Shown here one piece after another: positions 37,701-63,097 of a stretch of 64,000 nt of DNA. The notes under the pieces were generated by a model that made no database searches, had not been told where the DNA came from, and saw only the letters and a list, made by a program, of their open reading frames with translations. Within the stretch, counting starts at the first letter, position 1; every line of letters begins with the position of its first letter. Both the position numbers and the translations under genes were made by a program. Origin of the DNA: Gammaproteobacteria bacterium (GTDB taxonomy: Bacteria; Pseudomonadota; Gammaproteobacteria; Chromatiales; Chromatiaceae); NCBI GenBank assembly GCA_024275295.1, contig JAJRZI010000075.1:10903-74902 (forward strand), given 5' to 3'.

Positions 37701-37765
37701 GATATTGTGGGTGCTAAAATGAGAGCCAGTAGCGGAAAAAGCCAGATCAGTCGCAGCTGTTTCAT
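34742..37765 (-). pseudogene. 24-haem c-type cytochrome (about 1006 aa), one frame interrupted by an in-frame TAG at 36290-36292 (pseudogene, read-through or sequence error)
   Basis: ORFs 36290..37765 (12 CxxCH, signal peptide) and 34742..35968 (9 CxxCH) are in the same frame. I translated 35969-36289 codon by codon and found no other stop and three more CxxCH (CGACH, CNDCH, CATCH). Paralogue of 57658..60729. Confidence 0.75.
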
Positions 37766-38733
37766 GATGCGATGCGGTAGACGCTGATGCGGTTGGCGAA
37801 CATCTCTACCACGTAGAAGAGGCCGTTGTTATCAAAATAGAGCCGGGTCGGGGTGGTGAAGCGTTTGACCTTGCCCTGGCCATCACTGAGTACGGCCTGG
37901 AATTTGCCTGTTTTGTCGAACATCTGGATCACGCCCAGATAGGAGTCGGCAATAAAGACCTGCCCTTTGGCGTTGACGGCTACCCCTTTGGGGCGGAACA
38001 GCTCACCCTTTTCAACCCCCCAGCCGCCAATATCGTAGCCAAAGTTGAATCCCTCTTCGGGCAGAATGGTACGTATGCGGGTGTTGATGACATCGACAAT
38101 ATAGAGGGTGCCTGCAGAGTCGATATAGAGGGAGAAGGGCCAGCGGAAGCCATCCTGTTTATGGCTCATGCCGCCGATCGTGCGGATGAACTTTTGCTCT
38201 TTCAGGCTATAGACCAGTACCTGGTGATTCTCATTATCGACCACATAGAGCAGTTGACGTTGGTTGTCGATGGCCACATCGGTGGGGTCGGGGCGCTTCT
38301 GTTTCTTGCTCTGAGGGAGTTTGATCTGATCAAGATGTTTGCCATCAGGGCTGTAGATCTGCACGCGGGCATTGCCTGAGTCGGCGATGTAGACATTATC
38401 TTTGGCATCGAGGGTCATGCCCAGAGGGTAGCTAAGCTCATCGTCTGCGCTGCCACCCCTGCCAAAACTGCCCTGAAATTTGCCTTCATAGCTGTAGATA
38501 ACAACCCGGTTTGAGACGCCATCCAATACCAGGATGCGGTTGTCCGAGGTCATCCGCACATTGCTGGGATGGCGCAGGCCGAGCTTGTCGCCACCTTCGA
38601 TGACTCTGACGGGTTCAACAGGCAGCAGATCGCCGCGGGGGGCGGCGCTGAGCTGTTGGGTAATGAGTAGCAGGCAGGCAGCGGTGAGCAGGGCTGTGGC
38701 CCTCACGGTGTTGAGCAGGGTGAGATTACTCAT
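37762..38733 (-). CDS. NHL-repeat six-bladed beta-propeller protein (periplasmic)
   Basis: ORF 37762..38784. ATG 38733 gives a signal peptide (MSNLTLLNTVRATALLTAACLLL) and an ATGA overlap with the octahaem gene. Repeats such as YIADSGNARVQIYSPDGK and YVVDNENHQVLVYS. ATGA overlap with the 24-haem gene at 37762-37765. Confidence 0.85.
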   Translation of the reverse strand: MSNLTLLNTVRATALLTAACLLLITQQLSAAPRGDLLPVEPVRVIEGGDKLGLRHPSNVRMTSDNRILVLDGVSNRVVIYSYEGKFQGSFGRGGSADDELSYPLGMTLDAKDNVYIADSGNARVQIYSPDGKHLDQIKLPQSKKQKRPDPTDVAIDNQRQLLYVVDNENHQVLVYSLKEQKFIRTIGGMSHKQDGFRWPFSLYIDSAGTLYIVDVINTRIRTILPEEGFNFGYDIGGWGVEKGELFRPKGVAVNAKGQVFIADSYLGVIQMFDKTGKFQAVLSDGQGKVKRFTTPTRLYFDNNGLFYVVEMFANRISVYRIAS

Positions 38734-39686
38734 CACGGCAGCTGGAATCCCTTGATATCTTTTGTATCGTGGCAACCACGACAAATGCCGGCATTCTTTT
38801 GGCTAATGCGCAGGCGCTTATGTGAGTCTGCGCCAGCATTGGCGCGTTCCCTTATCTGTACGCCCAGCTCATGTGGGTTGTGGCAGGTGCCACAGAAAAC
38901 ATTGCCGGTCACGATCTCCAGAGGCAGAATGACATCCTTCTCGGTGGCGATGATCTTGTTGGCCATCTTTGCGTCGGGTGCGGCTGCATGATAGATAGGG
39001 TCACCATTCTCCTTATAACCCATTACGCAGCCTACGGCATAGGCATCATCGGTGTGGCAGCGCAGACAGAGTTGGTCGAAACGACTCTGATTAAAAGTAA
39101 CGTCTTCAATGCTCTTTGCGTGCTTTCGGTCAGGGGTTATGTCGTGACAGTAGGTGCAAACATCTTCTTTAAGTTCGCCCTCTTCGTTGATCTGATTATG
39201 TGGGTTGAGTTTTTTGTATTTGGATCTGTCGTGGCAGTTGTAGCAGAGGTCGGTTCGGTTTTTGTAGGGTGCGCCCCGATGAAAGAGTCGGTTCTCTTTC
39301 TTACGATAAAATTCACTGTTTAGGCATTGGTAGCTGATCTTATGACAGACGGCGCAGGTGATTTGATTGTCGCCATTAAGGCCAGAAAGAAACTCCTCTG
39401 GCATCTTCTCCATCATGGTTCGAGGTGGAATCATGCAGGTTGCGTGGATGTATTTGTCTTTTGAAATGGTAGCGTGGCAACGGTTGCATAGCATGTTGAT
39501 GTCGCCATTAAAACGGAGTGCTGTTCTTCCGCCTCGTTCGGGTATCTGCTCATGACACTCCAGGCACTTGTCCTGTGTTTCTGACCAGTGTGGATAGATG
39601 TTCAGGTTTTCACTTGCAAAGGTTTGTGAGAACAGCAGTGAGATGAGCAGTGTTGTTATAAATAGTCGCATCAGTTTATCTTTCAT
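38733..39686 (-). CDS. octahaem c-type cytochrome (periplasmic)
   Basis: Start at ATG 39686 (MKDKLMRLFITTLLISLLFSQTFA signal peptide). 8 CxxCH. Co-linear homologue of 52034..53041. Confidence 0.85.
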   Translation of the reverse strand: MKDKLMRLFITTLLISLLFSQTFASENLNIYPHWSETQDKCLECHEQIPERGGRTALRFNGDINMLCNRCHATISKDKYIHATCMIPPRTMMEKMPEEFLSGLNGDNQITCAVCHKISYQCLNSEFYRKKENRLFHRGAPYKNRTDLCYNCHDRSKYKKLNPHNQINEEGELKEDVCTYCHDITPDRKHAKSIEDVTFNQSRFDQLCLRCHTDDAYAVGCVMGYKENGDPIYHAAAPDAKMANKIIATEKDVILPLEIVTGNVFCGTCHNPHELGVQIRERANAGADSHKRLRISQKNAGICRGCHDTKDIKGFQLP

Positions 39687-39959
39687 AGCGTTATATCTTT
39701 TCCCCAAGCCATCCTTGCCACCAAAATAGACCTTGCCAGAAGCAACGGTGGGGGAGGTGCAGATCAGATCACCGGCATCAAATTCCCACAGTGGCTCAAG
39801 CGGTGGTGCAAGATCAGGGGTCGATTGGGTGTTGAGTTGTGGGTTGTAGAGGAACATGGGCCAGGAGGCGGACTCTGCTGCTCCAGGAGGATGCCATATT
39901 GTCAGAAGGAGTGACGATAGCCACTTATGAGGTTTAGTTGTTGCCAATAGTGCGCTCAC
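39687..39959 (-). pseudogene. remnant of the 5' end of a PQQ/BamB-like beta-propeller gene, in frame with the octahaem ORF
   Basis: The upstream 91 codons of ORF 38733..39959 read ...SWPMFLYNPQLNTQSTPDLAPPLEPLWEFDAGDLICTSPTVASGKVYFGGKDG. This aligns with the N-terminus and first blade of 50786..51916 (WNALNGGSRHLSHSPDVIPLEPKNVWQVGIARRFYASPVVIGDRIFVAARGK). Confidence 0.45.
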
Positions 39960-40084
39960 ACCGTTAAGTCTTATTTCGCCAAAATGTCCAGGAATAGAAT
40001 CTTATAGGTAAAAATAACAGTGTTGTTGTTAGTGACAGAGGAATCCGCTTGTACGATGGCCTCCTCTGTCGCTGTTGTTGCCCC

Positions 40085-40909
40085 CTACGGCGTGTTTCTT
40101 CTGCCTCGGGTTCTGGAGGCAGGGTCAAACATCGTTGGCAGGTAAAATTTACTGTACTTGGTGATCATACTCGCCACTTCGCCGGTCTCCAAGCGGTTTG
40201 CAACCACGGGTGAGTAGAGGAGCGATCTGAAGTTCAGCAGACCGTTCTTTGTATGACACTCATCACAGAAGATGGGTTTTTGTGAGATCTCCTTATGGAT
40301 GCGAACCTTTGCCTCTGCCTGTTGGTCGGCGTTAAAGGTGGCGCGTAGGCTGAGGTACTCCTCAATGAATGCCTTGTCGGCAGATTCATCTAGCCGTCGG
40401 CCTATGCCATCCTCCGCAACTTTGATAGGTACAATCATGGCACCATAGCTGCCCGGTTTGCCCTCAAGCCTGCTGAGTTCCATGCCGGTTTTTTTATTGA
40501 GCCATTTATAGACGATGTGGTCACTCTCCGTGGGTCTGATATGGCAGGTTTCGCAGGCGGTGAAAAAGGCATGGGCATTCAGGAAAGCCCGTACATCGGG
40601 TGCCTTTGAGTGCGGATAGTTGCCGTGACACTTCAGGCAGAGTGAGATGGACTCGGCACCTTCCAGTACAGCCTGGTCAACATTATGAAAATGTTCTCTT
40701 GAGATGCCTGCGCCAGTGGCAATCTGTTCCAGCGCGGTCTGATCACTGCTGCTGACCAGGCCGGTGTCAAAGGTGGCACGGAAGAAGGTGATCCACAGCA
40801 ACCAGAGTGCAAAGCCGGCAAGCAGGATGAATATGGATGCCATCAGGATATCCACCAGTAACCGTTTAAAGGGGGGCATGTCGGTGTGATGATTATGCAT
40901 TGTCGCCAT
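40085..40909 (-). CDS. membrane-anchored trihaem c-type cytochrome
   Basis: 274 aa. One N-terminal TM (LLVDILMASIFILLAGFALWLLWITFF). CLKCH, CETCH, CDECH. Homologue of 55469..56383. Confidence 0.75.
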   Translation of the reverse strand: MATMHNHHTDMPPFKRLLVDILMASIFILLAGFALWLLWITFFRATFDTGLVSSSDQTALEQIATGAGISREHFHNVDQAVLEGAESISLCLKCHGNYPHSKAPDVRAFLNAHAFFTACETCHIRPTESDHIVYKWLNKKTGMELSRLEGKPGSYGAMIVPIKVAEDGIGRRLDESADKAFIEEYLSLRATFNADQQAEAKVRIHKEISQKPIFCDECHTKNGLLNFRSLLYSPVVANRLETGEVASMITKYSKFYLPTMFDPASRTRGRRNTP

Positions 40910-41615
40910 TCCCCTCTGATGTTGCTTCTGCTTTTTCTGTGGCCAGCCGCTCCAGTTCGCGTTCGTACCAGAGTCCGTGCTCTTCTTTCATCATGCTTTC
41001 TGAGATCTTGCCGTCAATAAATGCTTTGTTCATAGGGTAGACATGGGGGTTGTAATGCACTGAAAAGATATGCCCGATAATGATGGCAAGGGCTGCCAGG
41101 GTGGCTTCACCCAGGTGGAAGGTGTCTGCGATATCCAGCCAAAATTTGGGCCAGTATTGCTCTGTCCACATCATGGTGCCGGTGACGATCACGATGAACA
41201 TGCCAAAGTAGACGGAGAAGTACTCTACTTTTTCCAGATAGGTGAAACGCTCCATTTTAGGTCGTGCCTCTCTGAAACCCAGCATGTAGCTGACGTTTTG
41301 TACAGCAAAGGTGGCGTCGCTCATGCGTGGCAGCATGTCTTTGATCCAGCTGCGTCCCTCGGCTTGTAAAACAACATAGCCCAGGTGGTAGAGGCAGACC
41401 AGTGTTACAGAGACCCCCGCTATCCGGTGCACAATGCCGCGCCAGTAGAAGATGGTGTCACCCGCACTGCCAAACATCTCAATGACCCAACGCTCGCCCA
41501 TCAGCATGAACCCGGTGAGGATCAGCAGGCCGGTGGAGACGAAGAGTATGACGTGTTGTATGCGTTGGCTTTTGGTAAGCCGAACAAAGCTTCTTTCATT
41601 TTTGCTATGGCTCAT
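40893..41615 (-). CDS. dihaem cytochrome b, FdnI/HydC (Ni_hydr_CYTB) type
   Basis: 240 aa with 4 TM. RIQHVILFVSTGLLILTG signature and conserved His in TM2 and TM4. ATGA overlap with the upstream cytochrome c gene. Confidence 0.8.
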   Translation of the reverse strand: MSHSKNERSFVRLTKSQRIQHVILFVSTGLLILTGFMLMGERWVIEMFGSAGDTIFYWRGIVHRIAGVSVTLVCLYHLGYVVLQAEGRSWIKDMLPRMSDATFAVQNVSYMLGFREARPKMERFTYLEKVEYFSVYFGMFIVIVTGTMMWTEQYWPKFWLDIADTFHLGEATLAALAIIIGHIFSVHYNPHVYPMNKAFIDGKISESMMKEEHGLWYERELERLATEKAEATSEGNGDNA

Positions 41616-42739
41616 GATGTATGTCTCCCCAACTTGGCAGCTCTGAGGGCAATTTTGCGCTCTCTGTGTGTGGCGTAAAGATCGGCTAAACGGTGAAATC
41701 CCAGTCCTCCCACTACGGCGATAATTAGGATCTTATAGAACAGTGCGATCATCTCAATGACCCAGGCTTGGAACTCTTGCTCCTCTTGATAGATGGTTAC
41801 GCCATCTTCATCTACACGCTCAGTCATAACGTTGGATGGGTGCGCTTTACCTTTGTTGGCAAAGGCTTCCTGTGCATCGGCATGACAGCCTGATTGCCGA
41901 CAGTCTCTCAGTTTGTTGTCGGGATGGACAGGCGATGAGCTATCGGTGTGAGAGATAATTCGGTGAGGTGAAAATCCCAGCTGATAGGGCGCATGACAGT
42001 TCAGGCAGTTGGCGACATCTTCATCACCATAGACGATGGCTTTGCCGTGGAAGGTGTCTTTAAAGCCAATAACCACGTCCACTTCATGCCGATCCATCTT
42101 CTCTTTGTCGGCATGACATTTGCTGCACAGGGCGACGACCTGCTTGGATGATCTACGGGTTTGGGCACGGTAGAACATGTGCTTGTAGAAGCGATTGGTC
42201 CAGGCCTCTGATTCGTGGCATTCCAGGCAGACCTTGATGAACTGCATTGATTTCAGCTCTTTACCAATACCGATCTGGTAAGGCTTGTTGGTGTGGCAGT
42301 CCTTGCATTTGGGTAGATCCTTGATGAGGTCGGGTTTTTTTGTACCATCCGGGCCATGGGCGCTCTTTCTCAGGTCGTTCACGATGGATTTGTGTGAGAA
42401 GGCCCGCCCGGTGGATGGGTCATTCAGATGGCAGTCGGTGGCGCAGTCTACGTTTTTGACATCGGTATGAGGTATCTCTTCAACGCCGGTGTGGCAGTTT
42501 TTACATCTGAGCTTGCCGTGGTAAGAGGCTTTGAAGAGCTCTTCATTGACATAAAAGATGCGCTTGACCGCCTTCTGTTCCTCATTTTTGGCATACCGCC
42601 CCAGGCCAGCGTATTTATGGCACATGAGGCAGTTTTCATCATCTACGGCCATGGCAGCAGCCGGGATGAAAAGAGTAAGAAAGGCGGTCAGCAGAAATAG
42701 GGCAACGGTAATGTCCCGTGCGGTGTGCTTGGTCTTCAT
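41612..42739 (-). CDS. multihaem c-type cytochrome with C-terminal membrane anchor (8 haem sites: 6 CxxCH + CX3CH + CX4CH), CbcA-like
   Basis: ORF 41612..42772. Signal peptide from ATG 42739. C-terminal TM (VIEMIALFYKILIIAVVGGLGF). Homologue of 53076..54185. Confidence 0.8.
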   Translation of the reverse strand: MKTKHTARDITVALFLLTAFLTLFIPAAAMAVDDENCLMCHKYAGLGRYAKNEEQKAVKRIFYVNEELFKASYHGKLRCKNCHTGVEEIPHTDVKNVDCATDCHLNDPSTGRAFSHKSIVNDLRKSAHGPDGTKKPDLIKDLPKCKDCHTNKPYQIGIGKELKSMQFIKVCLECHESEAWTNRFYKHMFYRAQTRRSSKQVVALCSKCHADKEKMDRHEVDVVIGFKDTFHGKAIVYGDEDVANCLNCHAPYQLGFSPHRIISHTDSSSPVHPDNKLRDCRQSGCHADAQEAFANKGKAHPSNVMTERVDEDGVTIYQEEQEFQAWVIEMIALFYKILIIAVVGGLGFHRLADLYATHRERKIALRAAKLGRHTS

Positions 42740-42939
42740 ACGGAGATTAATTCCACTGTAGTGGTTGGGCATGCTGAGGTCATTCGAATCACTTGTTTGC
42801 AGGGAGGTAAGGGGGGACTAGGGTGTTAAGTTGGCTTGACATTTAATACGAAACTCTATACTTGAGAAAACAAAGGGTTATTTTGACGTGAAATAGAAAG
42901 CGTTGCAACCTACTATTTTGCTTAGGTATTTCCTCATCT

Positions 42940-44718
42940 CTAGGGTGTTCCTTGTGTCCGGGTTGGCGCCAGGTTGCGGATTAATTCCAGCAGCTCTCTT
43001 GCTTCCCGGTTTTGCGGGAAGAGGGTGAGTTCCTGAAGCAACTCCGTGCGGGCGGCGGCTATTTGACCCACTGCCAGATAGGCCCTGGCTCGCATCAGAT
43101 GCAGCTTTCTGTGGCGTGCCCGGGTTCTGGCCAATTCGTCCATTGCGCGCATGACCATGCCGGGATTATTAAGCTTCAGATACAGCTTGGCAAGGTTGAT
43201 CAGACAGTCCGGCATGGATGAGTATTTAAGTGATTTGTTCATGTAGGTTTTGGCCGGGCCATACTGCTGCAGATGCATGGATGCGATTCCCATGTTGCAG
43301 TAGAGTGATGCCCAGGCAACCTGGTTTTCATCGTAGGCATTTTCAACACCCTGTTGAAAGATCTCCATGGCCTTGGCAGGTCGGTTTTTTATATCCCAAA
43401 TAATACCCAGGTTGATATAGGCTCTCAGGCTGCCAGGGGACTTTTCCACGCTCTCTTCCCAGAATTTTGTTGGATCTCCCCATACGGCGGCGCGGCTATG
43501 CCAGCTGAGCAGAAAGAGCACCATTAATATGACAGTTGGGATCAATATGGTTAGTTGTGGCTTGTTCTGCCTGGCCAGCCAATAGGCGACAGGCAGAAAC
43601 AGAAAGATGGATGGCAGGTAGTTGCGGTGGACAAAGGCCATCTCCAGCTGAATGAAGGTGGATTCAAGCAGATGGTTGATAAAAAACCAGAAAATTGCCA
43701 GCCATAGGAGTGGATACCGTTTGATCTGCAGGCTTGAGATAACTAAGAGTAAAACAATGCCGCTCCAGGAAAGAAGGGTGGTGATGGGGTTGAATAGCGT
43801 GTGTGACAGAGGGTATTTGAGTACAAAGGCCAGTCGGTCAGGATGCGGGAAGAAGAGCAGGCTGAGATAGTGGATCAATACCCGGCCCTGGGTCAGCAGA
43901 CGCTCTGTATTGGTGAATACGCGGTTGCCGGAGTCTTTGAGTAATCCCTGGATAATCTGAACGGGGCTGTAGCCGAGTGCCATGGCGCCTAATGCGGGTA
44001 CGACCAGCACGGCGCCCAGCAGGCAGGCCAGGCGTTTTCTGCGCGCCGGGGTGCCGCCGATGCGATCAGGTGGCAGTACAAATTCCAATACCAGTAACCC
44101 AAGTGGGAGCAGCGCAGCGTTCTCTTTGCTGGCAATGCCTGCGATAAAACTGGCTGTGAGCGCACTCCACCATCTCCAGCCGTGAGGGGACTCCCGTGTG
44201 TGCAGATAGGCAATGACCCCCAGAAGATAGAATGTGGCGGAGAGGAGTGTCATGCGCTGAATGACATAGAAAACGGTATCAGCATGAAAGGGATTCAGCC
44301 CCCAAAGCAGGGCGCACAGAAGTGCGGCGCTGTCTGCAATCTGTGGGCTGTTGCCAAAATGGGTCAGGAGGCGTCGGCAGAGAAAGAAGAGAATGATGAT
44401 ATTCAGACAGTGGATCAGGGTGTTGATGATCCGTCCTGATTTTGGTGTTAGCCCAACGATATTGTTTTCAATCAAAAAAGATAGGGTTGGAATAGGGCGC
44501 TGGGCTGCCGGGTAGGGGTTGTCAAAAATGGTATTGTGAATCTTGTCCCAAGAGAGTGAGGGTTCCCTTAAATAGGAGATGGATCGAAAGTGCCCTTCGG
44601 AATCGAGATAAAAACGCCCGGTTGTTGAATTCCAGCTGGCAGTCACTATGGCAGCTGATGCTATCAACAGCAGAACTGTGGATAGCAATACCCTCTGGAG
44701 TGCTGGCTTAGCTAGCAT
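42940..44718 (-). CDS. polytopic membrane protein with C-terminal TPR repeats (PMT/TMTC-like glycosyltransferase architecture)
   Basis: 592 aa. About 10 TM in the first ~400 aa, then TPR-like repeats (AYINLGIIW, ASLYCNMGIA, CLINLAKLYL, ARAYLAVGQ). Confidence 0.6.
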   Translation of the reverse strand: MLAKPALQRVLLSTVLLLIASAAIVTASWNSTTGRFYLDSEGHFRSISYLREPSLSWDKIHNTIFDNPYPAAQRPIPTLSFLIENNIVGLTPKSGRIINTLIHCLNIIILFFLCRRLLTHFGNSPQIADSAALLCALLWGLNPFHADTVFYVIQRMTLLSATFYLLGVIAYLHTRESPHGWRWWSALTASFIAGIASKENAALLPLGLLVLEFVLPPDRIGGTPARRKRLACLLGAVLVVPALGAMALGYSPVQIIQGLLKDSGNRVFTNTERLLTQGRVLIHYLSLLFFPHPDRLAFVLKYPLSHTLFNPITTLLSWSGIVLLLVISSLQIKRYPLLWLAIFWFFINHLLESTFIQLEMAFVHRNYLPSIFLFLPVAYWLARQNKPQLTILIPTVILMVLFLLSWHSRAAVWGDPTKFWEESVEKSPGSLRAYINLGIIWDIKNRPAKAMEIFQQGVENAYDENQVAWASLYCNMGIASMHLQQYGPAKTYMNKSLKYSSMPDCLINLAKLYLKLNNPGMVMRAMDELARTRARHRKLHLMRARAYLAVGQIAAARTELLQELTLFPQNREARELLELIRNLAPTRTQGTP

Positions 44719-45925: not shown

Positions 45926-47053
45926 GTGAGTAGATCAACTAATTGTCTTCAACGTTGTTATGTGTTGCTTGTTACATTGCTGTTATTGGTTGCTGCAGTG
46001 GGACTCAGTGGTTGCGTCGAAAAGCCGAGGAAGGTTCTGGAAGAGCCAAAAAATCTAGTCTGGCCTATGCCGCCAGAGCAACCAAGGATCCGCTACATAA
46101 AGAGCTGGCGTGGGCAAATAAATTTTAAAAAGCGCAGTGACTTTAAAGATGCGCTGCTTGGCATTGATCATCAGGGTCTTTATCTGGCCAAGCCATATGG
46201 TGTTGCAGTCAATGCAGATGGTAGCCGTATGTATGTTACAGATGCCAAATTGCGAGGTGTGGTTGTCTTTGATATGAAGAAGGAACAGGTCTACATGTTG
46301 AAAACGGATGCAATGGGTGGGTTGGCATCACCTGTTGAGGTGCGTGTTGATAGTAAGGGGCGAATCTATGTTACGGACAGCTTTGGTGGAAAGCTGATGG
46401 TCTATAAGCCCAATGGAGAGACTTTGAGAACATTAGGAAGGGCTGATGGGATGAAACGGCCAACAGGCTTGGCACTTGATGAGGCGCACAACCGAATCTA
46501 TGTTAGCGATGTAGTGAGTCACCAGATTATGGTGTACGATTTTGATGGCCATTTTATTAAACGCTTTTCTGAGCGGGGATCTGATCCGGGTTATCTAAAC
46601 TTTCCAAATAACCTGGCAGTGGATAAGGATGGAAAGATATACGTTACAGACAGTGGTAATTTCAGGGTGCAGATTTTTTCACCTGAAGGTGAATATCTCT
46701 CAGGCTTTGGAAAGCTTGGGGACGGCTTTGGAGCTTTTGCCCGGCCAAAAGGGATAGCAGTAGATAGTGATAATCATGTATATGTACTTGATGCGGCATT
46801 TGGAAATTATCAGATTTTTAATAATGCGGGCCAATTGCTCTTGTTTGTTGGTACAGTAGGCAGAGGCCCCGGTATGTTTTGGTTGCCTGCGGGCATGTAT
46901 ATTGATAATAACGATAAAATTTATGTTGTTGATTCGCTTAATAAACGGGTGCAGGTTTTCCAGTATATAAAGGAAGAGGAGACTGAAAGCACAGCAATAC
47001 CTAAAGCAGTCTCAAATGGAGGAACTGCTAAGGCGGTTGATTCAGGTAGGTAG
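45926..47053 (+). CDS. NHL-repeat beta-propeller lipoprotein
   Basis: 375 aa. Lipobox LSGC. Repeats YVTDSFGGKLMVYKPNG, YVSDVVSHQIMVYDFDG, YVTDSGNFRVQIFSPEG, YVVDSLNKRVQVFQ. Confidence 0.85.
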   Translation: MSRSTNCLQRCYVLLVTLLLLVAAVGLSGCVEKPRKVLEEPKNLVWPMPPEQPRIRYIKSWRGQINFKKRSDFKDALLGIDHQGLYLAKPYGVAVNADGSRMYVTDAKLRGVVVFDMKKEQVYMLKTDAMGGLASPVEVRVDSKGRIYVTDSFGGKLMVYKPNGETLRTLGRADGMKRPTGLALDEAHNRIYVSDVVSHQIMVYDFDGHFIKRFSERGSDPGYLNFPNNLAVDKDGKIYVTDSGNFRVQIFSPEGEYLSGFGKLGDGFGAFARPKGIAVDSDNHVYVLDAAFGNYQIFNNAGQLLLFVGTVGRGPGMFWLPAGMYIDNNDKIYVVDSLNKRVQVFQYIKEEETESTAIPKAVSNGGTAKAVDSGR

Positions 47054-47363
47054 TTGGGCTTTGAAAGTGGAGTCTTATTAAAATTCCATTATTTCAGGAT
47101 TGATAAGACTAAGTTGCTTATATAATTTGATTGTTTTTTTTTAGTAAAGCACTGATAACAGCATGAAATATAAAAACATTATGCTTTATTATGAGATGCT
47201 CAAGCACAAGATGTGTCATGGAGTAGAATCTAGCTAAAGGCAAAGTGCTGTGCTAAAGTTGAATGTAAGGGCTGGCTCTTAATACGCACGGCAGGGCGTG
47301 GGTAAGCTGAATTGAGTATACTGTTGTTACAGCGTTACAGCATATTAATTGCGGGGGGTAAAA

Positions 47364-48137: not shown

Positions 48138-48162
48138 CTAGGAGAATTTACTCCCGCATTAC

Positions 48163-48192
48163 AAAAAAGAGGGCTATTAAGCCCTCTTTTTT
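48163..48192 (+). terminator. rho-independent (bidirectional-looking) terminator
   Basis: AAAAAA-GAGGGCT-ATTA-AGCCCTC-TTTTTT. Confidence 0.8.
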
Positions 48193-54278: not shown

Positions 54279-55295
54279 ATGAAGCTGTCCAATGATGCAA
54301 ATAAGGTGCTGGGAACTTTTCTGCGCCAATATAAAATTCCAACGGAAGATGTAAATGATCTTGAAGAGATCGTTTCCATGATGCCGGAGGACAGAAAACA
54401 GATATACAAGAATGTGCAATCAAATCCAGTTGGGGATCTGTTTCGCTACTCTGTGCATATCCGTATCCAGCATTTACTGACCTTTACAACCTTTCTGCTG
54501 CTGGCATTTACGGGGTTGCCTATCCACTACAATGATGCGTTTTGGGCTGTGCCATTCAATGATCTACTGGGTGGCGTAGAGGTTACACGTGTTATTCACC
54601 GTACCCTGGCAACATGGATGGTGCTCTCTATGGTCTACCATCTCTTTACTGTTATTGGCGGAACCTTGCAGAAGATGGTAGAGGGCAAATTCGATATTGG
54701 CCGGAGCATTTTGCCTATTTTAAAGGATGCGAGGGACTTTGCTGCAGATATGGCTTACTTCGCTGGGCAGCGTGACAATCGTCCTGAGATGGATAAATTC
54801 ATGTATAAGCAGAAGATCCATTACTTTGCTGCCGCCTTTGGTAATATCGTGATGGTGATATCGGGATCTAGTTTCCTATTCCCCGAGTTCTGGAATAGCA
54901 TTTTGCCGCCTGATATCGCCTCCCATTTCCAAGAGATGATGCGGCTGTCGCATCCCCATGAGGCGTTGCTCGCCTTGTTGGTTATCGCATTCTGGCACTG
55001 GTATAACGTGCATCTCGCGCCGGGTCGTTTTCCGATGCAGTGGACATTTCTGACTGGTAAGCTGACAAGAGAACACCAGATTGAAGAGCATTTCCTTGAG
55101 TACCTCCGGTGCTTGGCTTCGCTTCCAGAAGAGAGGTCATATCTGCGAGAGGTGCTAGTCAGTAAGGGATTGGTCTCTGCTACAAAAGAGATAGATGCGC
55201 GCCAAAATTTCTTGTTTGATCAGCATCGCCAGTGGATCAAGGAACAGACGGAGTTGGGAGCACAAGGAGATGTGCTGGAAGATAGACAATCATGA
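54279..55295 (+). CDS. dihaem cytochrome b, FdnI/HydC type (extended N- and C-termini)
   Basis: 338 aa. RIQHLLTFTTFLLLAFTG. Homologue of 40893..41615. Confidence 0.8.
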   Translation: MKLSNDANKVLGTFLRQYKIPTEDVNDLEEIVSMMPEDRKQIYKNVQSNPVGDLFRYSVHIRIQHLLTFTTFLLLAFTGLPIHYNDAFWAVPFNDLLGGVEVTRVIHRTLATWMVLSMVYHLFTVIGGTLQKMVEGKFDIGRSILPILKDARDFAADMAYFAGQRDNRPEMDKFMYKQKIHYFAAAFGNIVMVISGSSFLFPEFWNSILPPDIASHFQEMMRLSHPHEALLALLVIAFWHWYNVHLAPGRFPMQWTFLTGKLTREHQIEEHFLEYLRCLASLPEERSYLREVLVSKGLVSATKEIDARQNFLFDQHRQWIKEQTELGAQGDVLEDRQS

Positions 55296-55468: not shown

Positions 55469-56383
55469 ATGGCTGAAACAGTAGAACTCGATGCCATTTT
55501 TATCGCGCTGGCGGTAACACTGTTTGTGTTTTTCGTAACTGCCGTTATGGTGATTATCGATCACAAGGCAAAAATACCTGGAAAAGAGACGGCTGATTTT
55601 TTCAGTGTTTCAGGTATTCGACGGAACCACCCGGCATGGGCATGGATGGTATCGGTATTTTTGTGGTTTATTATTGGCAGCCTATTGGTGATTGTTTCCT
55701 ATAACATGCTGTCACATCTATGGGTACATGAAGAGCCTGTCGAGCGCTCTTTCCTGTAAAAGGTCTCTTTTGAAGGCGACCTTGAGCGCATCAGACATTT
55801 CCATAATTCCCCTAAAGTAGCGGCCTATTCAAAGGGTAAACAGCCTGTCTGCTTCTACTGCCATGGTGAATTTCCACATGCTAAACGCCCAATGGTACGC
55901 ACCTTGTTGAATATGCATACCCAGTTCGTTGGGTGTATGACCTGCCATGCAAACAATGAGAAGATTCCAGAAGAGGAACTTACATTTCGCTGGCTTAATT
56001 ACTCAGGAATCAGGGTTAACGGGCCGCAGTTTGGCACGGCTTATGATGAAGAGACAGGCGATCTCATCGGGACAGATGATCAGTACTCCAAAATTGTTGC
56101 CTACCGGAAAAAAGCAAATGGTGAGGAAGAGTTGTTGGAAATCACAGAAGATGCGCCAGAAGCTGCTGAGTTTATTAACATGTGCGGACAACTGACTACC
56201 CAGCAACAGGGTTCTGTGAAAAAGATGTTTCACACCATCGTTAATCCTATTGGCCGATTCTGTACGCGTTGTCATGTAGCAGAAGAGGGTAAGGGTTACC
56301 TGCCATTTCGAGAGCTTGGATTTTCGGATGCCAGAGCATTGGGTCTGACCAACCTTAATATTGCGGGTTTGGTTCAGAAGTAG
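55469..56383 (+). pseudogene. membrane-anchored trihaem c-type cytochrome, frame interrupted by in-frame TAA at 55757-55759 (and possibly continuing past TAG 56381-56383 to 56533)
   Basis: ORFs 55469..55759 (2 TM) and 55892..56383 are in the same frame. Codons 55760-55891 contain no stop and no ATG/GTG/TTG, yet encode the conserved RHFHN...CFYCHGEFPH first haem site seen in paralogue 40085..40909. Confidence 0.7.
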
Positions 56384-56557
56384 AAAGAGTTCTATATGGA
56401 GCTGGTATTTTTGGGCAAAGAAGATGATGAAGAAACCAAGGCTTTAGTTGGCGAAGATTCAGATCTTCCAGAGATGGATGACAATATGAAGAATGATCCA
56501 CGCGGCTGGTGGCGTCAGGGTGCTGACGAGTAAGTTGCTTAAGGCATAATTAGCTAA

Positions 56558-56713: not shown

Positions 56714-57655
56714 TTGAATTACAGAAATCGGTTCCTTGGAACCAATCTTCTAATCGTGACTTTGTTGTTGCTTATCAGCAGCAGCATTGCCGCAAAGCAG
56801 ACCATACCTTTAGGTAAGGCTGAACATCTGTTTGATATTCAGTCAGCGCCGGATGGCCCCCTCTCTTTACCGTCAGACGTTGCAATTGCAAATGATAACC
56901 GGATTTACATTGTGGATGGCGGCCATCACCGTGTGTTGGCGTATGGGCCAGATGGAAAATTTCTCTTTTCATTCGGAAAAAGAGGACGAGGCAAGGCTGA
57001 GTTCATGTGGCCACTGGGGATTGATGTAGATAAGGCCGGGTTGGTTTATGTTACTGATAAGGAGAATCACCGGATCCAGGTATTTGATCGCGATGGCGGG
57101 CATCAATTCAGTTTTGCAGTTAATAGAAAAGATGGCACGCCAGGGACGCCAATTGATGTTACGGTGAGTGCCAAGACAGGGCTTATATTTGTAACTGAAA
57201 ACTCACAACATCGTATCCTGGTATTTGATATAGATGGAACAAAGCTAGGCGGATGGGGTAAACGAGGTGTTCGGCAAAGGGAGTTCCGCTATCCAGGATC
57301 TATCCTCGTGCAGGATGGGAATGTTTATGTGGTTGATGTTCTGAATACCGTTATCAAAATATTCGATGAACGAGGCAAGTACCAATACAAAGTGGGTGAA
57401 TGGGGTGTATTGCCGGGTCAGTTCTACCGTCCAAAAGGTGTGGCTGTGGATAGCCAGGGTTTGATATATGTGACAGATAGTTATATGGATGTAGTTGAAG
57501 TCTTTGATAAAGGGTATAAATTTACCCATGTTCTTGCATCGGGCAAACAAAAATATAAATTCTATGCGCCTGCTGGTATTGCGATAGATGGTAGGGATAG
57601 ACTGTATGTTGCAGAGATGTTGGGGAATAAGGTTTCGGTATTTAAACTGCGATAG
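56714..57655 (+). CDS. NHL-repeat beta-propeller protein
   Basis: 313 aa (TTG start) with a signal peptide. Repeats YIVDGGHHRVLAYGPDGK, YVTDKENHRIQVFDRDG, FVTENSQHRILVFDIDG, YVAEMLGNKVSVF. Confidence 0.85.
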   Translation: MNYRNRFLGTNLLIVTLLLLISSSIAAKQTIPLGKAEHLFDIQSAPDGPLSLPSDVAIANDNRIYIVDGGHHRVLAYGPDGKFLFSFGKRGRGKAEFMWPLGIDVDKAGLVYVTDKENHRIQVFDRDGGHQFSFAVNRKDGTPGTPIDVTVSAKTGLIFVTENSQHRILVFDIDGTKLGGWGKRGVRQREFRYPGSILVQDGNVYVVDVLNTVIKIFDERGKYQYKVGEWGVLPGQFYRPKGVAVDSQGLIYVTDSYMDVVEVFDKGYKFTHVLASGKQKYKFYAPAGIAIDGRDRLYVAEMLGNKVSVFKLR

Positions 57656-57657
57656 CC

Positions 57658-60600
57658 ATGTTTGCTCGATATCTACTCATCCTTGTTTTTCTGCTGGTTG
57701 GATCATCATTAACCTTTAATGATGCTGAAGCTCGAAGTATCGCAGCTAAACGTGAATGTTCAATCTGCCACATTATGTGGCTGGATGACTTTCAGCGGCC
57801 TGAGGCAACGCCACTTATCCCCTATGATCCAAATCCTGTGATGAACACAGGTAAGCAGGATGTTGTCAGTAATGAGCGCAACTGCTTCTCCTGCCATGAT
57901 GGCTTTGTGCTTGATTCCCGGTTTGTATGGCAAAACAAGCAGTATTCCCATCCGGTCGGTGTTGTGCCATCAGATAAAGTAAATCTGCCAACAGCGAATG
58001 AGGCACAGCTGCGACCAGATCTCAATCTTTTTCCGCTGAATAAAGATGGGAAGGTCTACTGCGGGACCTGCCATAGTGCGCATGGTGTGGATTGGAAGCA
58101 GGAGGCCTCTCCGGTCTTTCTGCGAGCCAAAAATATTGAGTCAAGTATCTGCCTTAACTGCCATAGAAATCGAAGTACCGGCCCAAAAGGTGGCAATCAT
58201 CCCATTCGCAGGAAACTGGAGAACATTCCAGCTGAATTGTTGGATAAGGGATCCAAGTTTGGCAAGGACAATATTATTATTTGTCAGTCATGCCATCGTA
58301 TCCATGGTGGACGTGACAAGAAGGTGTTGGTGGCCTCAAACAGGAACTCTGCGCTGTGCGGCAAGTGTCACAGTGATCGTTATGCCAAGGATAGGGTTGA
58401 GTCTACAAAGATGGGAACCCACCCGGTTAATATCACCTCGAAAAAGGTCAAAATCCCCAAGGAGATTATTGACAGAGGTGGCAAGCTTGGGGAGAAGGGG
58501 CAGATCATTTGTCAGACATGTCACCGTCCACATCTGGCAGAGAAAAAAGCCACTATTCTGGTTAAGAAAAATGGTAATGACTCGGCGCTTTGCCGGACAT
58601 GCCATCTGAAGGAGGGGCGGGTAAAAAATACCAAACATAATATGGTGCTGCAGGAGAAGGAGGTTAAGAACATACGTGGCCAGAAGGTGAGTGAGGCCGG
58701 GGTGTGCAGCGCCTGTCATCTTCCCCATAATGGAAATGGCCCAAGGATGTGGGCACGTAAGATTGGTGCTGGCCCTGAGAAAATATCGAGGCTGTGCCTG
58801 AGTTGTCACAGCAAGGGAAAGATTGCTGAGCACAAACAGGTTGGCTCGATCAGTCATCCTCTCGGGCGCAATATGTCCCGTCTGGGTGAAGCGGTGAAAC
58901 TCCCTGGGTTCACAGATGCCGGGTTGAAAAAAATAGGCGATATGAAGGGCAAAGTATCCTGCGCCAGTTGCCATAATCCGCACCAATGGGATCCTAAAAA
59001 CCCTGATAAATCATCTAAACCAGGTGAACCAAGTGATGCAAATAACCGCTTCCTGCGTGTAGCTAATAAAGGCTCTAATGCACTATGCCGTACCTGTCAT
59101 AAGGATAAGGCGGGTATAAAGGGAACCAAGCATGATGTAGCCACGATGGATGCTTCGGCAAAAAGTGAAAATGGAACCCCGGGGTTATGCAAAACCTGCC
59201 ATCTTGTGCATAAAGGAAAGGGGCCGCGTCTGTGGGCAAGAGCGCCGCTTAAAGGGGTTGATCCCATCTCGTCAATCTGCCTGAGTTGTCATAATAAAAA
59301 AGGGTTAGGTAAAAAGAAAACCATTGGAGAGCATAGCCATCCTGTTAATGTGCCTCTGTCCAATCTGGGTATTGTCTCTTCAAATAACGGTTGGGTGATT
59401 GGCACAAAGAAAAAACCTGATGAAAGATATAAAAATAGAAAATTAAAAGTGCTGCCGTTATTTGATGCGAAAGGTAAAAAAACAGCTGAAGATGGTCGGG
59501 TGACCTGTGCCAGCTGTCATAACCTGCACCGTTGGTCAGCTGCATCAAAGGCAGTTAAAGGTGCTGCACTGACCGCTGAAGGCGATGCAAAAACGAGTTT
59601 CTTGCGCATCTCCAACACTCAAAAAGCAGAGTTATGCATCAATTGCCACTTTGACAAGGGAGCAGTGGCCTTATCCAAACACAACCTGGCGATTACTGCA
59701 CCAGAGGAACGGAACAGCATCGGGCAGAAGGCCAAGGATATTGTGGTCTGTTTTAACTGCCATGTACCACACAATGCAGATGGGGCAAAGCTCTGGGGCA
59801 GGGGATTTGGCCCAGGTGGTGATAGGGCTGAATCAATGTGTCGAGAGTGTCACCGGGATGATGGTATTGCTAAAAATAAGCAGACAGGTGAGTTCACTCA
59901 TCCACTGCAGGCAAACATAAAAAAGGTTGGAGGAAGAACCAAATTGCCCTTATTTAATAAAAAGGGTGAGCGTAGCGACAGTAAATCTGGCTGAAGGGTC
60001 AGCTGTCCCTCCTGTCATAATCCTCATCAGTGGGATCCAGCAGATCCACTGAGTAAGGCCGGTGCCGATGCAAAGGTTGAAGGCGACGCAAATACCAGTT
60101 TCCTGCGTATGCCTGCTGCACCAGATGGGGCCTTGTGCGCGTATTGCCATCGTGACAAACGCTGGGTGAAGGGCACGGATCATGATCTTAGGGTGACTGC
60201 GCCAGAAGCTAAAAATCTACGCGGTGAAACCGTTCAGCAATCAGGTATCTGCCAGCAATGCCATCTGGTTCACAATGCAAGACAGGCTCTACGATTGTGG
60301 GCGCGTAAGCCAGGGCTTGGACAAGATATTAATGAACAGATGTGTCGAGGTTGTCATGATAAAGGCCTGGCAGCACAGCAGAAGATCCCGATAAAGAAAA
60401 ATCATCCGGCTAAGGTGAAGGCGCAGATTCTTCGGCAACGAGCCCGTCGAGGCCCGGTGCGTGGGTTTACCCCCCTATTTGATGAGGATGGAAAGAGAGC
60501 AAATACCGGTATTATCTCATGCCCCACTTGCCATAACCCACATCGCTGGAGTCCTGTAGTTATGGAATATGGTACAGGTGAGAATATTGAAGGTAATTCG

Positions 60601-60729
60601 CGAAGTAGTTTCCTACGCAATCGTAGTAAATTGGCATTGTGCTCAAACTGTCATGGCATGGATGCGTTATTCAGATATAAGTACTTCCATGGCAAGTCCT
60701 CGCGTAAAAAACATCAGTTATATCGCTGA
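57658..60729 (+). pseudogene. 24-haem c-type cytochrome (about 1022 aa), one frame interrupted by an in-frame TGA at 59992-59994 (pseudogene, read-through or sequence error)
   Basis: ORFs 57658..59994 (18 CxxCH, signal peptide) and 60109..60729 (5 CxxCH, no signal peptide) share a frame. Codons 59995-60108 have no stop and encode RVSCPSCHNPHQWDP...NTSFLR, the missing fourth haem of a repeat unit. Confidence 0.75.
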
Positions 60730-61012
60730 TGTAATGATTGTATTAGGAAGAAAAGGCACTATTCTCGACCTGTCTTATTAAGAGAGGCCGTTTTGCAGCT
60801 AATTTTTTGGTTGGCATGCCTATAATATATAGAGGTGGAGCTAAACAGCTCGTGTGGGTGTATTGTTAAGTCTTTTATATGTGTGATGTTACTGATGGTC
60901 AAAGATAGCCTGAGTACAAACCGCTAGGCAACAGGGATGCTAAATCTATTGGCTAGTAGCGTAGCGCATGCAAAGTTGGTTTGGTTTGAGATTTAAATTA
61001 TGATGGTTAGGT

Positions 61013-61891
61013 ATGGTTGATATGCCATGTAGAGTGCAGATTATCTGCTTTTTGTTGCTGTGTTGCTTAATTCAGGCGGCAATGGCTGGTAATGGCTTGG
61101 GTACTTTGAGCAATACTATTGTAGGCTCAAAACATGATCTGAGCATAAGTAACTACTACGGAATAGATGCATCCTATGGGGTAACCCCTTCAGATCAAAT
61201 CTGTGTATTTTGCCATACACCGCATGGGGCCAATGTTGATCTAAATAATGATGGCACTGTTGATACAGATGATCCTATTCGCCCGTCTGCGCCCCTTTGG
61301 AATCGCAATATTTCTGATACCAGCTTATCGGCTAGCTTTACCCCCTATGGTAGTGCGCCAGGCTATCAAAGCTACACGCTAAATACTGTTTTTGAGGCGG
61401 GTTGGGTGCCTAGTCCTGTATCGCTGGTTTGCTTGAGCTGTCATGATTCAGCTTTGGCAAATAGTGGCAGTTCAGGTATTGTCACCACTTCTGGGTCAGA
61501 GGGCGATACTCACAATTTGGTCAATATGCCTAATCGTGCTGGCGCTGAAACGCCAAACTGTGGCGCCTGCCACCCTGATGGTGGAACTGTTCCTCCTACT
61601 TGGTGGCAGATCGGCCCAGACATGTCGAATGACCACCCTATTTCAATGTCATATCCGCCAAATTATTCAGGTTGGGCAGATGATTTTTATCCTGCACCAA
61701 ATGCAACAAATGGTTGGACGGGTGTTAAGTTATATCAAGGCCGAGTGGAGTGCCCAAGCTGCCATAATCCGCATAATCCCGGTGAGATTGTCTATATAGA
61801 CAACTCATACGCCGTCCCGCTTAAATATGCGCCATTCCTGCGCACAACACTTGATGGCAGTACACTTTGTGTGACCTGTCATAAGAAGTAG
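61013..61891 (+). CDS. pentahaem c-type cytochrome, same small secreted family as 47364..48137
   Basis: 292 aa. GSKHDLS...QICVFCHTPH...PLWNR. CVFCH, CLSCH, CGACH, CPSCH, CVTCH. Ends LCVTCHKK. Confidence 0.8.
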   Translation: MVDMPCRVQIICFLLLCCLIQAAMAGNGLGTLSNTIVGSKHDLSISNYYGIDASYGVTPSDQICVFCHTPHGANVDLNNDGTVDTDDPIRPSAPLWNRNISDTSLSASFTPYGSAPGYQSYTLNTVFEAGWVPSPVSLVCLSCHDSALANSGSSGIVTTSGSEGDTHNLVNMPNRAGAETPNCGACHPDGGTVPPTWWQIGPDMSNDHPISMSYPPNYSGWADDFYPAPNATNGWTGVKLYQGRVECPSCHNPHNPGEIVYIDNSYAVPLKYAPFLRTTLDGSTLCVTCHKK

Positions 61892-62056
61892 GCTTCCTAA
61901 AAGGCGCTTGTAAAACGCCGGAGCTGGCTCCTGGTAGCGTTAGAAGCCGGCTGGTGCGTACACTTGATAGTGTACTATTCTAATGAGATAGGTTACCTGT
62001 CTATGTTATAGAAGCAAGGGGGCATGTGGAGATATGTGTAATATGGGGAATGTGAA

Positions 62057-63097
62057 GTGACAATTTTTCGCTGGCTACTACTCGTTATGGTGATGGTTGT
62101 GCCCTGTGCAGGGTTACAGGCTGCATCGCCCCAGTCTGAGGAAGAAGATATTATCGATTTGGTGTGGCCACCCAAGCCTATGCCAGCACGTATCCGCTAC
62201 CTGAATGCAATTGCCAGCTTTGATGATATTAAGTATGAAAAAGGTTTTTGGGAAAAGTTTTGGGATCTCATTAGAGGGGAACAACAGAATAGCCAGCTCA
62301 AACCCACAGCTGTGGCTGTAGATGATAAGGGGCGGATGAGTGTTGCTGACCCAACAGGAAAAGTGGTTCACGTTTATGATCAAAAAACGGGTGATTATTG
62401 GGTCATAGAAGAGGCAGATGTTCCTCTAATATTGCCCGTTGGACTGGCGGTAGATGAAAAAGGCAATATCTATGTTTCTGATGGTGGCCTGAAGAAAGTA
62501 TGCGTTTTTTCTCCAAAAGGTAAATATCTGAGGTCGATTGGGGATGCTGAGCAGATAGAACGCCCCACAAGTATTGCTATTGATACAACCAGACGTGTGC
62601 TTTATGTGGTCGATACGCCTGCTCATACGATCAGGGTTTTCAATCTGGATGATGGCTCTTTTATCCGTACTATTGGAAAGCGTGGGCGGAAAGAGGGAGA
62701 GTTGAACTTTCCTGGTTATGTCTTTGTTGGGCCAAATGGATATCTGTATGTTAATGATGCGCTAAATGGGCGGATTCAGGTTTTTGATACTGAGGGTAAG
62801 TTTGTTAACACATTTGGTCGATTTGGTGATGCTTCGGGTACCTTTGCTACGCCAAAGGGCATCGCTGTGGATAGTGATAGAAATATATATGTGGCAGATG
62901 CTGGATTCGATAATATCCAGATTTTTAATAGTCAGGGCCGTTTGTTGTTGGACTTTGGCCGGTCTGGTCAGGCACCGGGTGAATTCTGGACACCCTCGGG
63001 CTTATACTTTGATAGTAAAGACCGATTATATGTAGCCGATGCATACAATAGACGGATACAGATTTTTCAGTATTTGAAGACAGCGGTGAAGCAATGA
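62057..63097 (+). CDS. NHL-repeat beta-propeller protein
   Basis: 346 aa (GTG start) with a signal peptide. Repeats YVSDGGLKKVCVFSPKGK, YVVDTPAHTIRVFNLDDG, YVNDALNGRIQVFDTEGK, YVADAGFDNIQIFNSQG, YVADAYNRRIQIFQ. Confidence 0.85.
   Translation: MTIFRWLLLVMVMVVPCAGLQAASPQSEEEDIIDLVWPPKPMPARIRYLNAIASFDDIKYEKGFWEKFWDLIRGEQQNSQLKPTAVAVDDKGRMSVADPTGKVVHVYDQKTGDYWVIEEADVPLILPVGLAVDEKGNIYVSDGGLKKVCVFSPKGKYLRSIGDAEQIERPTSIAIDTTRRVLYVVDTPAHTIRVFNLDDGSFIRTIGKRGRKEGELNFPGYVFVGPNGYLYVNDALNGRIQVFDTEGKFVNTFGRFGDASGTFATPKGIAVDSDRNIYVADAGFDNIQIFNSQGRLLLDFGRSGQAPGEFWTPSGLYFDSKDRLYVADAYNRRIQIFQYLKTAVKQ

Follow-up and report, generated by a model that had tools for sequence, protein, structure and literature searches.

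The stretch of DNA analysed here, hereafter the window (64,000 nucleotides (nt), positions 10,903-74,902 of contig JAJRZI010000075.1, assembly GCA_024275295.1, from a Gammaproteobacteria bacterium of the Chromatiaceae), contains four genes for β-propeller proteins of the NHL type, each of which precedes a gene for a multihaem cytochrome. This gene pairing is real and strongly conserved, and it appears probable, at roughly 0.6, that the four NHL proteins are exported, non-redox accessory partners of cytochromes built from OmcE modules, within an extracellular electron transfer locus of the OmcE/Uet type. Explanations in which the propellers act in adhesion, act as enzymes, or are merely passive neighbours are less well supported than a partner role.

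Pairing of NHL and cytochrome genes

A profile built from NHL homologues and searched against all open reading frames (ORFs) of the window retrieved exactly four NHL ORFs, even at E<=10, and the four products match Pfam PF01436 with E values of 1e-26 to 1e-36 (90-122 bits; cut-off 20). They form two families, NHL1 (the 37762 and 56714 products, 38% identical to each other) and NHL2 (the 45926 and 62057 products, 41% identical), with 28-31% identity between NHL1 and NHL2. The four genes and their cytochrome partners, by position in the window, are:

37762-38733, minus strand: NHL1-A, an exported six-bladed type-1 propeller (Pfam NHL E=1.3e-28) with a signal-peptide-like N-terminus
34742-37765, minus strand: c24-A, a cytochrome with 24 CXXCH motifs and an in-frame TAG at 36290-36292, aligned with Q/E of the paralogous repeats
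56714-57655, plus strand: NHL1-B, an exported six-bladed type-1 propeller (Pfam NHL E=2.2e-36) with a GGAGG Shine-Dalgarno sequence upstream
57658-60729, plus strand: c24-B, a cytochrome with 24 CXXCH motifs and an in-frame TGA at 59992-59994, starting 2 nt after NHL1-B
45926-47053, plus strand: NHL2-D, a type-2 propeller lipoprotein (Pfam NHL E=2.6e-36) with the lipobox LSGC
47364-48137, plus strand: an OmcE-like tetrahaem cytochrome, 310 nt 3' of NHL2-D and not coupled to it
62057-63097, plus strand: NHL2-C, a type-2 propeller (Pfam NHL E=3.6e-26)
63094-64000, plus strand: the 5' part of an undecahaem-type cytochrome gene, with five CXXCH visible and an N-terminal OmcE-like domain

A preliminary description of this DNA, made from the sequence alone, had placed each NHL gene immediately before a multihaem cytochrome gene on the same strand, and all four of its junctions can be read from the sequence. 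The stop codon of NHL1-A overlaps the start codon of c24-A as ATGA (37762-37765, minus strand) and the same overlap joins NHL2-C to the undecahaem-type gene (63094-63097), while NHL1-B and c24-B are separated by 2 nt (57656-57657) and NHL2-D by 310 nt (47054-47363) from the ATG at 47364. A further junction, absent from that description, is found in the minus-strand cluster, where the stop codon of the preceding octahaem gene (c8-A) overlaps the start of NHL1-A by 1 nt (TGATG at 38733). The lipobox of the 45926 product fits its earlier description as a lipoprotein. The two genes described as encoding 24-haem proteins do hold 24 CXXCH each, but only when one in-frame stop codon is read through, and the gene after NHL2-C does encode a cytochrome, but leaves the window at its end.

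Inside the window alone the pairing is statistically unremarkable, and its weight is carried by cross-genome conservation. The 34.7-64 kb region has about 21 genes, 11 of them for multihaem cytochromes, and because about half of the genes of the region are cytochromes, a four-for-four pairing has a chance of about 5%. This leaves room for a reading in which the adjacency is passive, the NHL protein being a generic part of a cytochrome-dense locus and its real partner being the outer-membrane barrel or the inner-membrane module encoded nearby.

An NHL alignment scan of species-representative genomes found 424 relatives, of which the best 80 loci were fetched, and a cytochrome-side scan of metagenome contigs was run with the long cytochrome as query. 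The next gene after NHL1 was counted if it lay on the same strand and encoded at least two CXXCH. By this measure NHL1 is followed by a cytochrome in all 77 assessable loci among the best 80 of the 424, the partners having mostly 24, 18 or 6 haems and the loci spanning Gamma- and Betaproteobacteria, Nitrospirota and Desulfobacterota; in the same loci a non-NHL gene is followed by a cytochrome in 34% of cases, or 41% within the cluster. From the cytochrome side, an NHL gene lies directly upstream of the long cytochrome in 66 of 72 assessable metagenome loci, and the six loci without one comprise three c24 and three or four c20 variants, with one further locus giving a marginal match. NHL2 precedes an OmcE-domain cytochrome in 23/24 loci, as it also does in four distant loci that include Thermodesulfobacteriota. 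The preliminary description had made its proposal depend on the adjacency being kept outside this genome, and these counts show that it is.

The spacing is conserved as well. NHL1 lies no more than 10 nt from its long partner (13-38 haems) in 56 of 60 loci, with a median of -4 and with overlaps of the form ATGA (27 loci), GTGA (8) and TTGA (1), and NHL2-undecahaem pairs mostly overlap by 4 nt. The starts of c24-A and c24-B have no Shine-Dalgarno-like motif, that of NHL1-B being preceded by GGAGG; the missing motifs, together with the conserved overlaps, would fit coupling of NHL1 and c24 by termination and reinitiation. Translational coupling had been claimed for three of the pairs, and the junctions and their conservation stand, but coupling as such is better worded as probable than as seen. 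NHL2-D and the OmcE-like gene, which form the fourth pair, are neighbours without coupling. In a relative the gap of this pair is about 430 nt, a search of the 310-nt gap for promoters and terminators returned a single weak promoter-like site that is uninformative, and the OmcE-like subunit gene probably has expression signals of its own.

Other genes of the cluster, namely those for the octahaem cytochrome (c8), the PQQ-like propeller, the barrel and the NHL2-undecahaem (NHL2-c11) unit, shift position among lineages, while the NHL-cytochrome pairs stay intact. A variant architecture occurs mainly in Betaproteobacteria (loci L037, L041, L043, L046, L050, L054, L055, L058, L065, L066 and L072). 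Here NHL1 heads an operon with a 6-haem CbcA-like membrane cytochrome, from which it is separated by large gaps (median 187 nt), a b-type cytochrome detected in only some of the loci, and a trihaem protein, and additional copies of the membrane module often lie in divergent orientation to this operon.

Pairwise distance matrices from the 29 loci with the full five-gene module split into two blocks. The heptahaem, b-type and trihaem proteins correlate among themselves (r 0.89-0.95, partial r 0.66-0.78) and NHL1 correlates with c24 (r 0.87, partial r 0.76), whereas the values for NHL1 against the three membrane proteins are lower (r 0.57-0.74, partial r -0.43 to 0.16); NHL1 was therefore inherited or adapted with the long cytochrome and not with the membrane module. 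The passive reading can draw on the betaproteobacterial operons headed by NHL1 and on the proposal that the Osc proteins OscE and OscF act with the porin OscG (PMC13194489). Nevertheless it is quite unlikely, given counts this far above background, 4-nt overlaps that are conserved specifically with the long and undecahaem cytochromes, the co-variation of NHL1 with c24 instead of the inner-membrane proteins, and pairs that remain intact as the genes around them move.

The propellers, their partners and a possible role

The AlphaFold2 (AF2) model of NHL1-B, made with 66 homologues, has a mean predicted local distance difference test (pLDDT) score of 94.9 and about 25 strands in six four-stranded blades. 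The nearest solved structures are the NHL domains of TRIM3, TRIM2, TRIM71, Thin and Brat, with Foldseek template-modelling (TM) scores of 0.89-0.92 to Thin, TRIM3 and TRIM2 and of about 0.83 to Brat, and no cytochrome-complex structure is present among the structural matches. These domains (PDB 6XG7, 7QRW, 7B2R and 1Q7F) share the six-bladed fold, TRIM and Thin with a TM score of about 0.9 and 27-34% identity and Brat with lower values, and bind ligands without catalysing reactions, as is proposed for the propellers of the window; they differ in being eukaryotic, cytosolic RNA- or protein-binding domains of larger proteins, whereas the NHL proteins of the window stand alone and carry export signals. 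A lipobox is found in 37/120 homologues of NHL2 and 5/120 of NHL1, and no curated NCBIfam family claims either.

NHL1 has no Cys and no CXXCH or other haem motif. Across the 66 sequences 27 residues are invariant, of which eight lie in the blade 4-5 loop and about 19 outside it, most of the latter at equivalent positions of the NHL repeat, and the single invariant His is H166. Conserved aromatic and basic residues specific to the family (W181, R192, W230, R239 and K241) are located in long interblade loops, which would place them on the usual ligand-binding face of NHL domains. It had been stated that NHL propellers have no cofactor. This is not universal, as the NHL-like lyase PAL binds Zn and Ca, but no such site is conserved here: the central-channel site of PAL, which we take to hold Zn by three His, has no counterpart among the conserved residues of the 66 NHL1 sequences.

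That the propellers are enzymes, similar to lactonases, lyases or PAL, that would alter the cytochrome, or else a small molecule serving the pathway as substrate or shuttle, is very improbable. There are weak Pfam matches to the SGL/gluconolactonase, arylesterase and strictosidine-synthase-like families, and PAL (3FVZ) appears at rank 41 of the structural matches; however, these Pfam matches overlap generic six-bladed repeats and score far below the NHL repeat, no curated enzyme family reaches its cut-off, the best structural matches are the non-catalytic TRIM, Brat and Thin domains, and the invariant residues include a single His and no Cys, with most of those outside the blade 4-5 loop at repeat-equivalent positions.

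A role as substrate-facing or adhesive modules, which would bind mineral, metal, sulfur particles or partner cells and present them to the cytochrome, is also unlikely. An ordinary signal peptide and no lipobox is what 115/120 NHL1 homologues possess, the NHL1 gene is placed between those of the inner-membrane module and of a periplasmic-type rod cytochrome, no cluster of Cys or His is conserved that might bind metal, and the conserved start/stop overlap with the cytochrome would not be expected of a separate adhesin. Such a role would nonetheless agree with the interpretation of Gmet_0556 as acting via cell adhesion, as cited in bioRxiv 10.1101/2022.05.06.490989, and with the mineral-nanocrystal binding raised in PMC12016550. 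Designed 'Pizza' propellers derived from NHL proteins, which occur among the structural matches, bind metals and polyoxometalates, and the NHL2-D lipoprotein could be surface-exposed.

The partner cytochromes have a common element. Judged by its alignments, the 47364-48137 product is a full-length OmcE homologue: it matches PDB 7TFS (E=2.5e-27) and 9YUQ (E=5e-24) over its full length, and its four CXXCH and four further His (KH, TPH, DHP and xH) align with those of 7TFS, accounting for all eight haem-ligating His. We take 7TFS, labelled in the database only as 'Cytochrome c', to be the Geobacter OmcE filament. A profile of the OmcE tetrahaem family is matched end to end by the N-terminus of the undecahaem partners of NHL2 (29/29, E ~1e-65) and in repeated N- and C-terminal pieces by the 18/24-haem partners of NHL1 (57/57, median E 3e-44), and all four NHL genes therefore precede OmcE-module cytochromes. 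Orthologues of the cytochrome starting at 63094 have 11 CXXCH in 698-711 amino acids, and c24, with about 43 residues per haem, is not of low complexity. The haem counts of long cytochromes homologous to 57658-60729 are stepwise (18, 20, 24, 28 and 38, in loci L003-L167) and in c24 the C-terminal half consists of tetrahaem units repeated in tandem, both of which would fit growth by the duplication of OmcE-like modules.

Four in-frame stop codons interrupt the genes of the window: the TGA in c24-B and the TAG in c24-A listed above, and TAA 55757-55759 and TAG 56381-56383 in a trihaem gene. The closest relatives of the locus are Sedimenticola and Polarisedimenticolaceae metagenome-assembled genomes (76-86% amino-acid identity), and in close relatives the c24 orthologues are intact (1019-1023 amino acids) with sense codons at the stop sites. 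Compared with a JGI metagenome contig of 94.5% DNA identity, three of the four stops are single transversions (GGA, GAA and TAC there, in intact genes), and elsewhere in c24 the two sequences differ mainly at third codon positions (30/16/134), which indicates purifying selection. Either both clusters were inactivated very recently, or the stops are errors in the sequence. Selenocysteine or other recoding was considered and rejected, since TGA, TAG and TAA are all used and relatives have sense codons; the residues aligned at the stop sites (Gly, Gln/Glu, Glu and Tyr, none of them Cys) also rule it out. UetJ of Tenderia is flagged as a pseudogene by NCBI, according to a preprint, and this may or may not be related to the stops seen here.

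The preliminary description had proposed that the propeller is a stoichiometric partner of the cytochrome, with a role as scaffold or chaperone or in docking or mineral binding. A non-redox partner role is consistent with the lack of Cys and CXXCH and the lone invariant His of NHL1, and NHL1 co-varies with c24, but physical binding in a fixed stoichiometry, and a function in assembly, docking or secretion, are what we infer from these features. If so, NHL1 would be made together with the long 18-24-haem rod cytochrome from a translationally coupled pair, downstream of a CbcAB-like quinol module (anchored heptahaem, b-type and trihaem membrane protein). It would most likely bind the rod in the periplasm, either to hold it during haem insertion and folding or as a permanent collar or dock which places the rod between the inner-membrane module and an outer-membrane conduit. 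NHL2, of which one copy is a lipoprotein, would pair with cytochromes that start with a full OmcE domain, these being the tetrahaem subunit and the UetJ-like undecahaem cytochrome, and at the inner face of the outer membrane it would most likely, with the large barrel, export or anchor them, in the manner proposed for OscE/F and OscG in OmcS biogenesis.

Several points weigh against a dedicated partnership and it should be considered with some caution. As 6/72 long-cytochrome loci have no adjacent NHL gene, NHL1 in cis is not obligatory, and as the partner in the betaproteobacterial variant is a 6-haem CbcA-like cytochrome, the partner family of NHL1 is not invariant. No natural NHL-cytochrome fusions, which would be evidence of the Rosetta-stone kind, occur in the fetched loci. 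The loci are homologous and hence the counts are not independent events, and a mirror-tree correlation can reflect co-transfer of the pair instead of co-adaptation. Finally, c24-A, c24-B and one trihaem gene contain nonsense codons, so that this organism may have an inactive system, unless the codons are sequence errors.

A bolder and rather doubtful extension is that NHL1 and the 18/24-haem protein constitute a distinct, widespread two-gene unit, a 'single-chain nanowire' with a dedicated propeller, in which the long cytochrome would be a covalent OmcE-like concatenation spanning the periplasm and NHL1 its obligate 1:1 cap or dock. NHL1 would then block end-to-end polymerisation of the OmcE type, or plug the rod onto the CbcAB-like quinol module. 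No description of an NHL1-c18/24 unit downstream of a CbcAB-like module was found in a limited search of the searchable literature.

Locus layout and neighbouring genes

The window contains two paralogous clusters and two extra pairs. Cluster B, on the plus strand, has the order putative barrel, PQQ-like propeller, octahaem cytochrome, heptahaem cytochrome with a C-terminal transmembrane helix, PF01292 b-type cytochrome, trihaem membrane protein, NHL1, c24, pentahaem cytochrome, NHL2 and undecahaem cytochrome. Cluster A, on the minus strand, contains the membrane module, octahaem cytochrome, NHL1 and c24 only, and the NHL2-D lipoprotein and OmcE-like genes stand upstream of cluster B. The remaining features are:

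38733-39686, minus strand: c8-A, an octahaem cytochrome, with a likely start MKDKLM at 39686
40085-42772, minus strand: inner-membrane module A, of three genes
41612-42772, minus strand: module A cytochrome of 6-7 haems with a C-terminal transmembrane helix
40893-41615, minus strand: module A b-type cytochrome (PF01292)
40085-40909, minus strand: module A trihaem membrane protein
49002-50765, plus strand: exported protein of 587 amino acids, a putative large outer-membrane beta-barrel, kept beside the OmcE-like gene in many loci
50786-51916, plus strand: PQQ/BamB-like beta-propeller (PF13360 E=5e-57)
52034-53041, plus strand: c8-B, an octahaem cytochrome
53076-54185, plus strand: module B heptahaem cytochrome, with 7 CXXCH and a hydrophobic C-terminal transmembrane helix
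54279-55295, plus strand: module B b-type cytochrome (PF01292)
55469-56533, plus strand: module B trihaem membrane protein, interrupted by TAA 55757 and TAG 56381
61013-61891, plus strand: pentahaem cytochrome, upstream of NHL2-C

In both modules a cytochrome anchored at its C-terminus, of 7 CXXCH in module B, lies next to a PF01292 b-type cytochrome (54279-55295, and also 40893-41615), an arrangement of the CbcAB type; the likeness, which is one of architecture only, is to what we take to be Geobacter CbcAB (GSU0593/0594). The 49002-50765 product belongs to no Pfam or NCBIfam family, and in its AF2 model, which is of low confidence (mean pLDDT only 43), the fold is all-beta and about 27 long strands are seen. 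Between the OmcE-like gene and this putative barrel gene lies an 865-nt non-coding gap (48138-49001) with several terminator-like hairpins, and neither a riboswitch nor any other RNA was matched in Rfam, at gathering thresholds, in this or the other intergenic gaps.

Upstream of c8-A, a minus-strand frame at 39687-39959 has about 50 residues similar to the N-terminal part of the cluster B PQQ-like propeller (PLEPLWEFDAGD...GKVYFGGKDG), and appears to be what remains of a deleted propeller gene; the barrel gene is also missing from cluster A. Between cluster A and a LysR-type regulator, 42940-44718 (minus strand) encodes a 592-amino-acid protein with many transmembrane helices and C-terminal tetratricopeptide (TPR) repeats, a homologue of which adjoins the NHL2-OmcE pair in one relative (L008). 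Genes for glycosylation and for TPR proteins have been reported from other OmcE clusters, but a glycosyltransferase domain was not detected here. Further away, the G+C content of the region from about 12000 to 22000 is 58-64%, that of the other parts about 45-55%, and the AT skew of the region is strongly negative, a composition which suggests that this block differs in origin from the rest of the window. It encodes a major facilitator superfamily (MFS) transporter and a membrane-bound complex with NuoL/M-like, NuoH-like and fused NuoC/D-like subunits, a relative of group-4 [NiFe] hydrogenase or Mrp, and a sensor kinase and sigma-54 activator lie upstream of it at 9141-11961.

Relation to known systems and significance

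NHL proteins associated with cytochromes are a known feature of the Uet, OmcE/OmcS and Desulfovibrio (D.) ferrophilus clusters, and the locus is not a new kind of system. In D. ferrophilus IS5 the NHL propellers DFE_0451 and DFE_0463 are co-located and co-expressed with multihaem cytochromes and have been proposed as sites of protein-protein interaction that stabilise an outer-membrane cytochrome complex (PMC5815863; PMC9769857), although that organism belongs to another phylum with another cytochrome set, and its likeness to the window is one of description only. NHL proteins are also present in cytochrome loci of Geoalkalibacter (PMC12016550) and Dethiobacter (PMC10376724), and GSU2505, an NHL protein encoded beside omcS in Geobacter sulfurreducens, has been implicated in the assembly or secretion of OmcS (PMC9070056). 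The claim that the role of such propellers is uncharacterised is thus overstated, as they have been reported beside multihaem cytochromes and proposed as stabilisers of complexes or as secretion factors, whereas the interpretation as partners is reasonable.

The closest parallels are with the uet and OmcE clusters. UetH and UetI are NHL proteins which adjoin the undecahaem UetJ in 'Ca. Tenderia electrophaga' and some Gallionella (bioRxiv 10.1101/2022.05.06.490989; PMC10734462), and the window likewise has a six-bladed NHL gene directly before an undecahaem-type cytochrome, with a tetrahaem cytochrome and a putative large barrel in the locus. ResB and CcsA maturation genes follow the undecahaem gene in two close relatives (L087 and L086), the former being 94% identical and encoding 11 CXXCH in 711 amino acids, so that the NHL-undecahaem-ccsAB order of uet is found. 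However, no domains corresponding to the peptidyl-prolyl isomerase UetB, the cupredoxin UetF or the three c7-type trihaem proteins UetD/E/G were detected in the ORFs of 34.7-64 kb; in their place are the pair of NHL1 and a 24-haem cytochrome, a PQQ-like propeller and a CbcAB-like module of b-type and heptahaem cytochromes. The locus is therefore not assigned to uet but shares with it, by layout, the NHL-undecahaem unit.

The OmcE clusters of Desulfuromonadia 'always encode' two propeller lipoproteins and a large beta-barrel, together with the OmcE subunit and two multihaem cytochromes (bioRxiv 10.1101/2025.10.22.684050). The window matches these in its tetrahaem OmcE homologue with eight ligating His, the propeller lipoprotein NHL2-D directly upstream of it, the large putative barrel directly downstream and its further multihaem cytochromes, and the same layout is seen in distant Thermodesulfobacteriota loci with the NHL2 family. 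It differs in its Sedimenticola-like gammaproteobacterial host and in the additional NHL1-c24 and inner-membrane modules. For the osc operon, the companion of OmcS, OscE, OscF and OscG are implicated in OmcS assembly or secretion (PMC13194489, citing Shen et al., 2025); the parallel is one of non-cytochrome accessory genes beside a nanowire cytochrome, proposed as necessary for its secretion, assembly or expression, although OmcS is a hexahaem protein of another family and the Osc proteins are likened to NHL1 and NHL2 by description only. An identity with PCC3, in which low-complexity cytochromes with 22-39 residues per haem accompany an inner-membrane protein of about 300 amino acids and five helices and no propeller is described (PMC5566968), was rejected, because c24 falls outside that range and is not low-complexity and because, in the membrane module of the window, two haem c proteins accompany a b-type cytochrome of PF01292.

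Iron and sulfur cycling, corrosion and bioelectrochemical devices all depend on extracellular electron transfer. The folding, holding and placement in the envelope of very long multihaem cytochromes are poorly understood. In hundreds of genomes from several phyla, two NHL families are tightly linked to OmcE-module cytochromes, in many cases through a stop codon that overlaps the next start, and this linkage, with the specific co-variation of NHL1, makes the propellers the best candidates for the assembly or docking factors of these proteins. If the single-chain nanowire with its NHL1 does exist, it would represent an envelope-spanning conduit unlike Mtr, Pcc, PCC3 or Uet in sulfur- and iron-oxidising Gammaproteobacteria, Betaproteobacteria and Nitrospirota. 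The comparative analysis points to cultured carriers that are suited to testing the partner role, among them Thiohalomonas denitrificans, Sedimenticola isolates and Noviherbaspirillum denitrificans TSA40 (L011), the last of which carries the NHL1 module.

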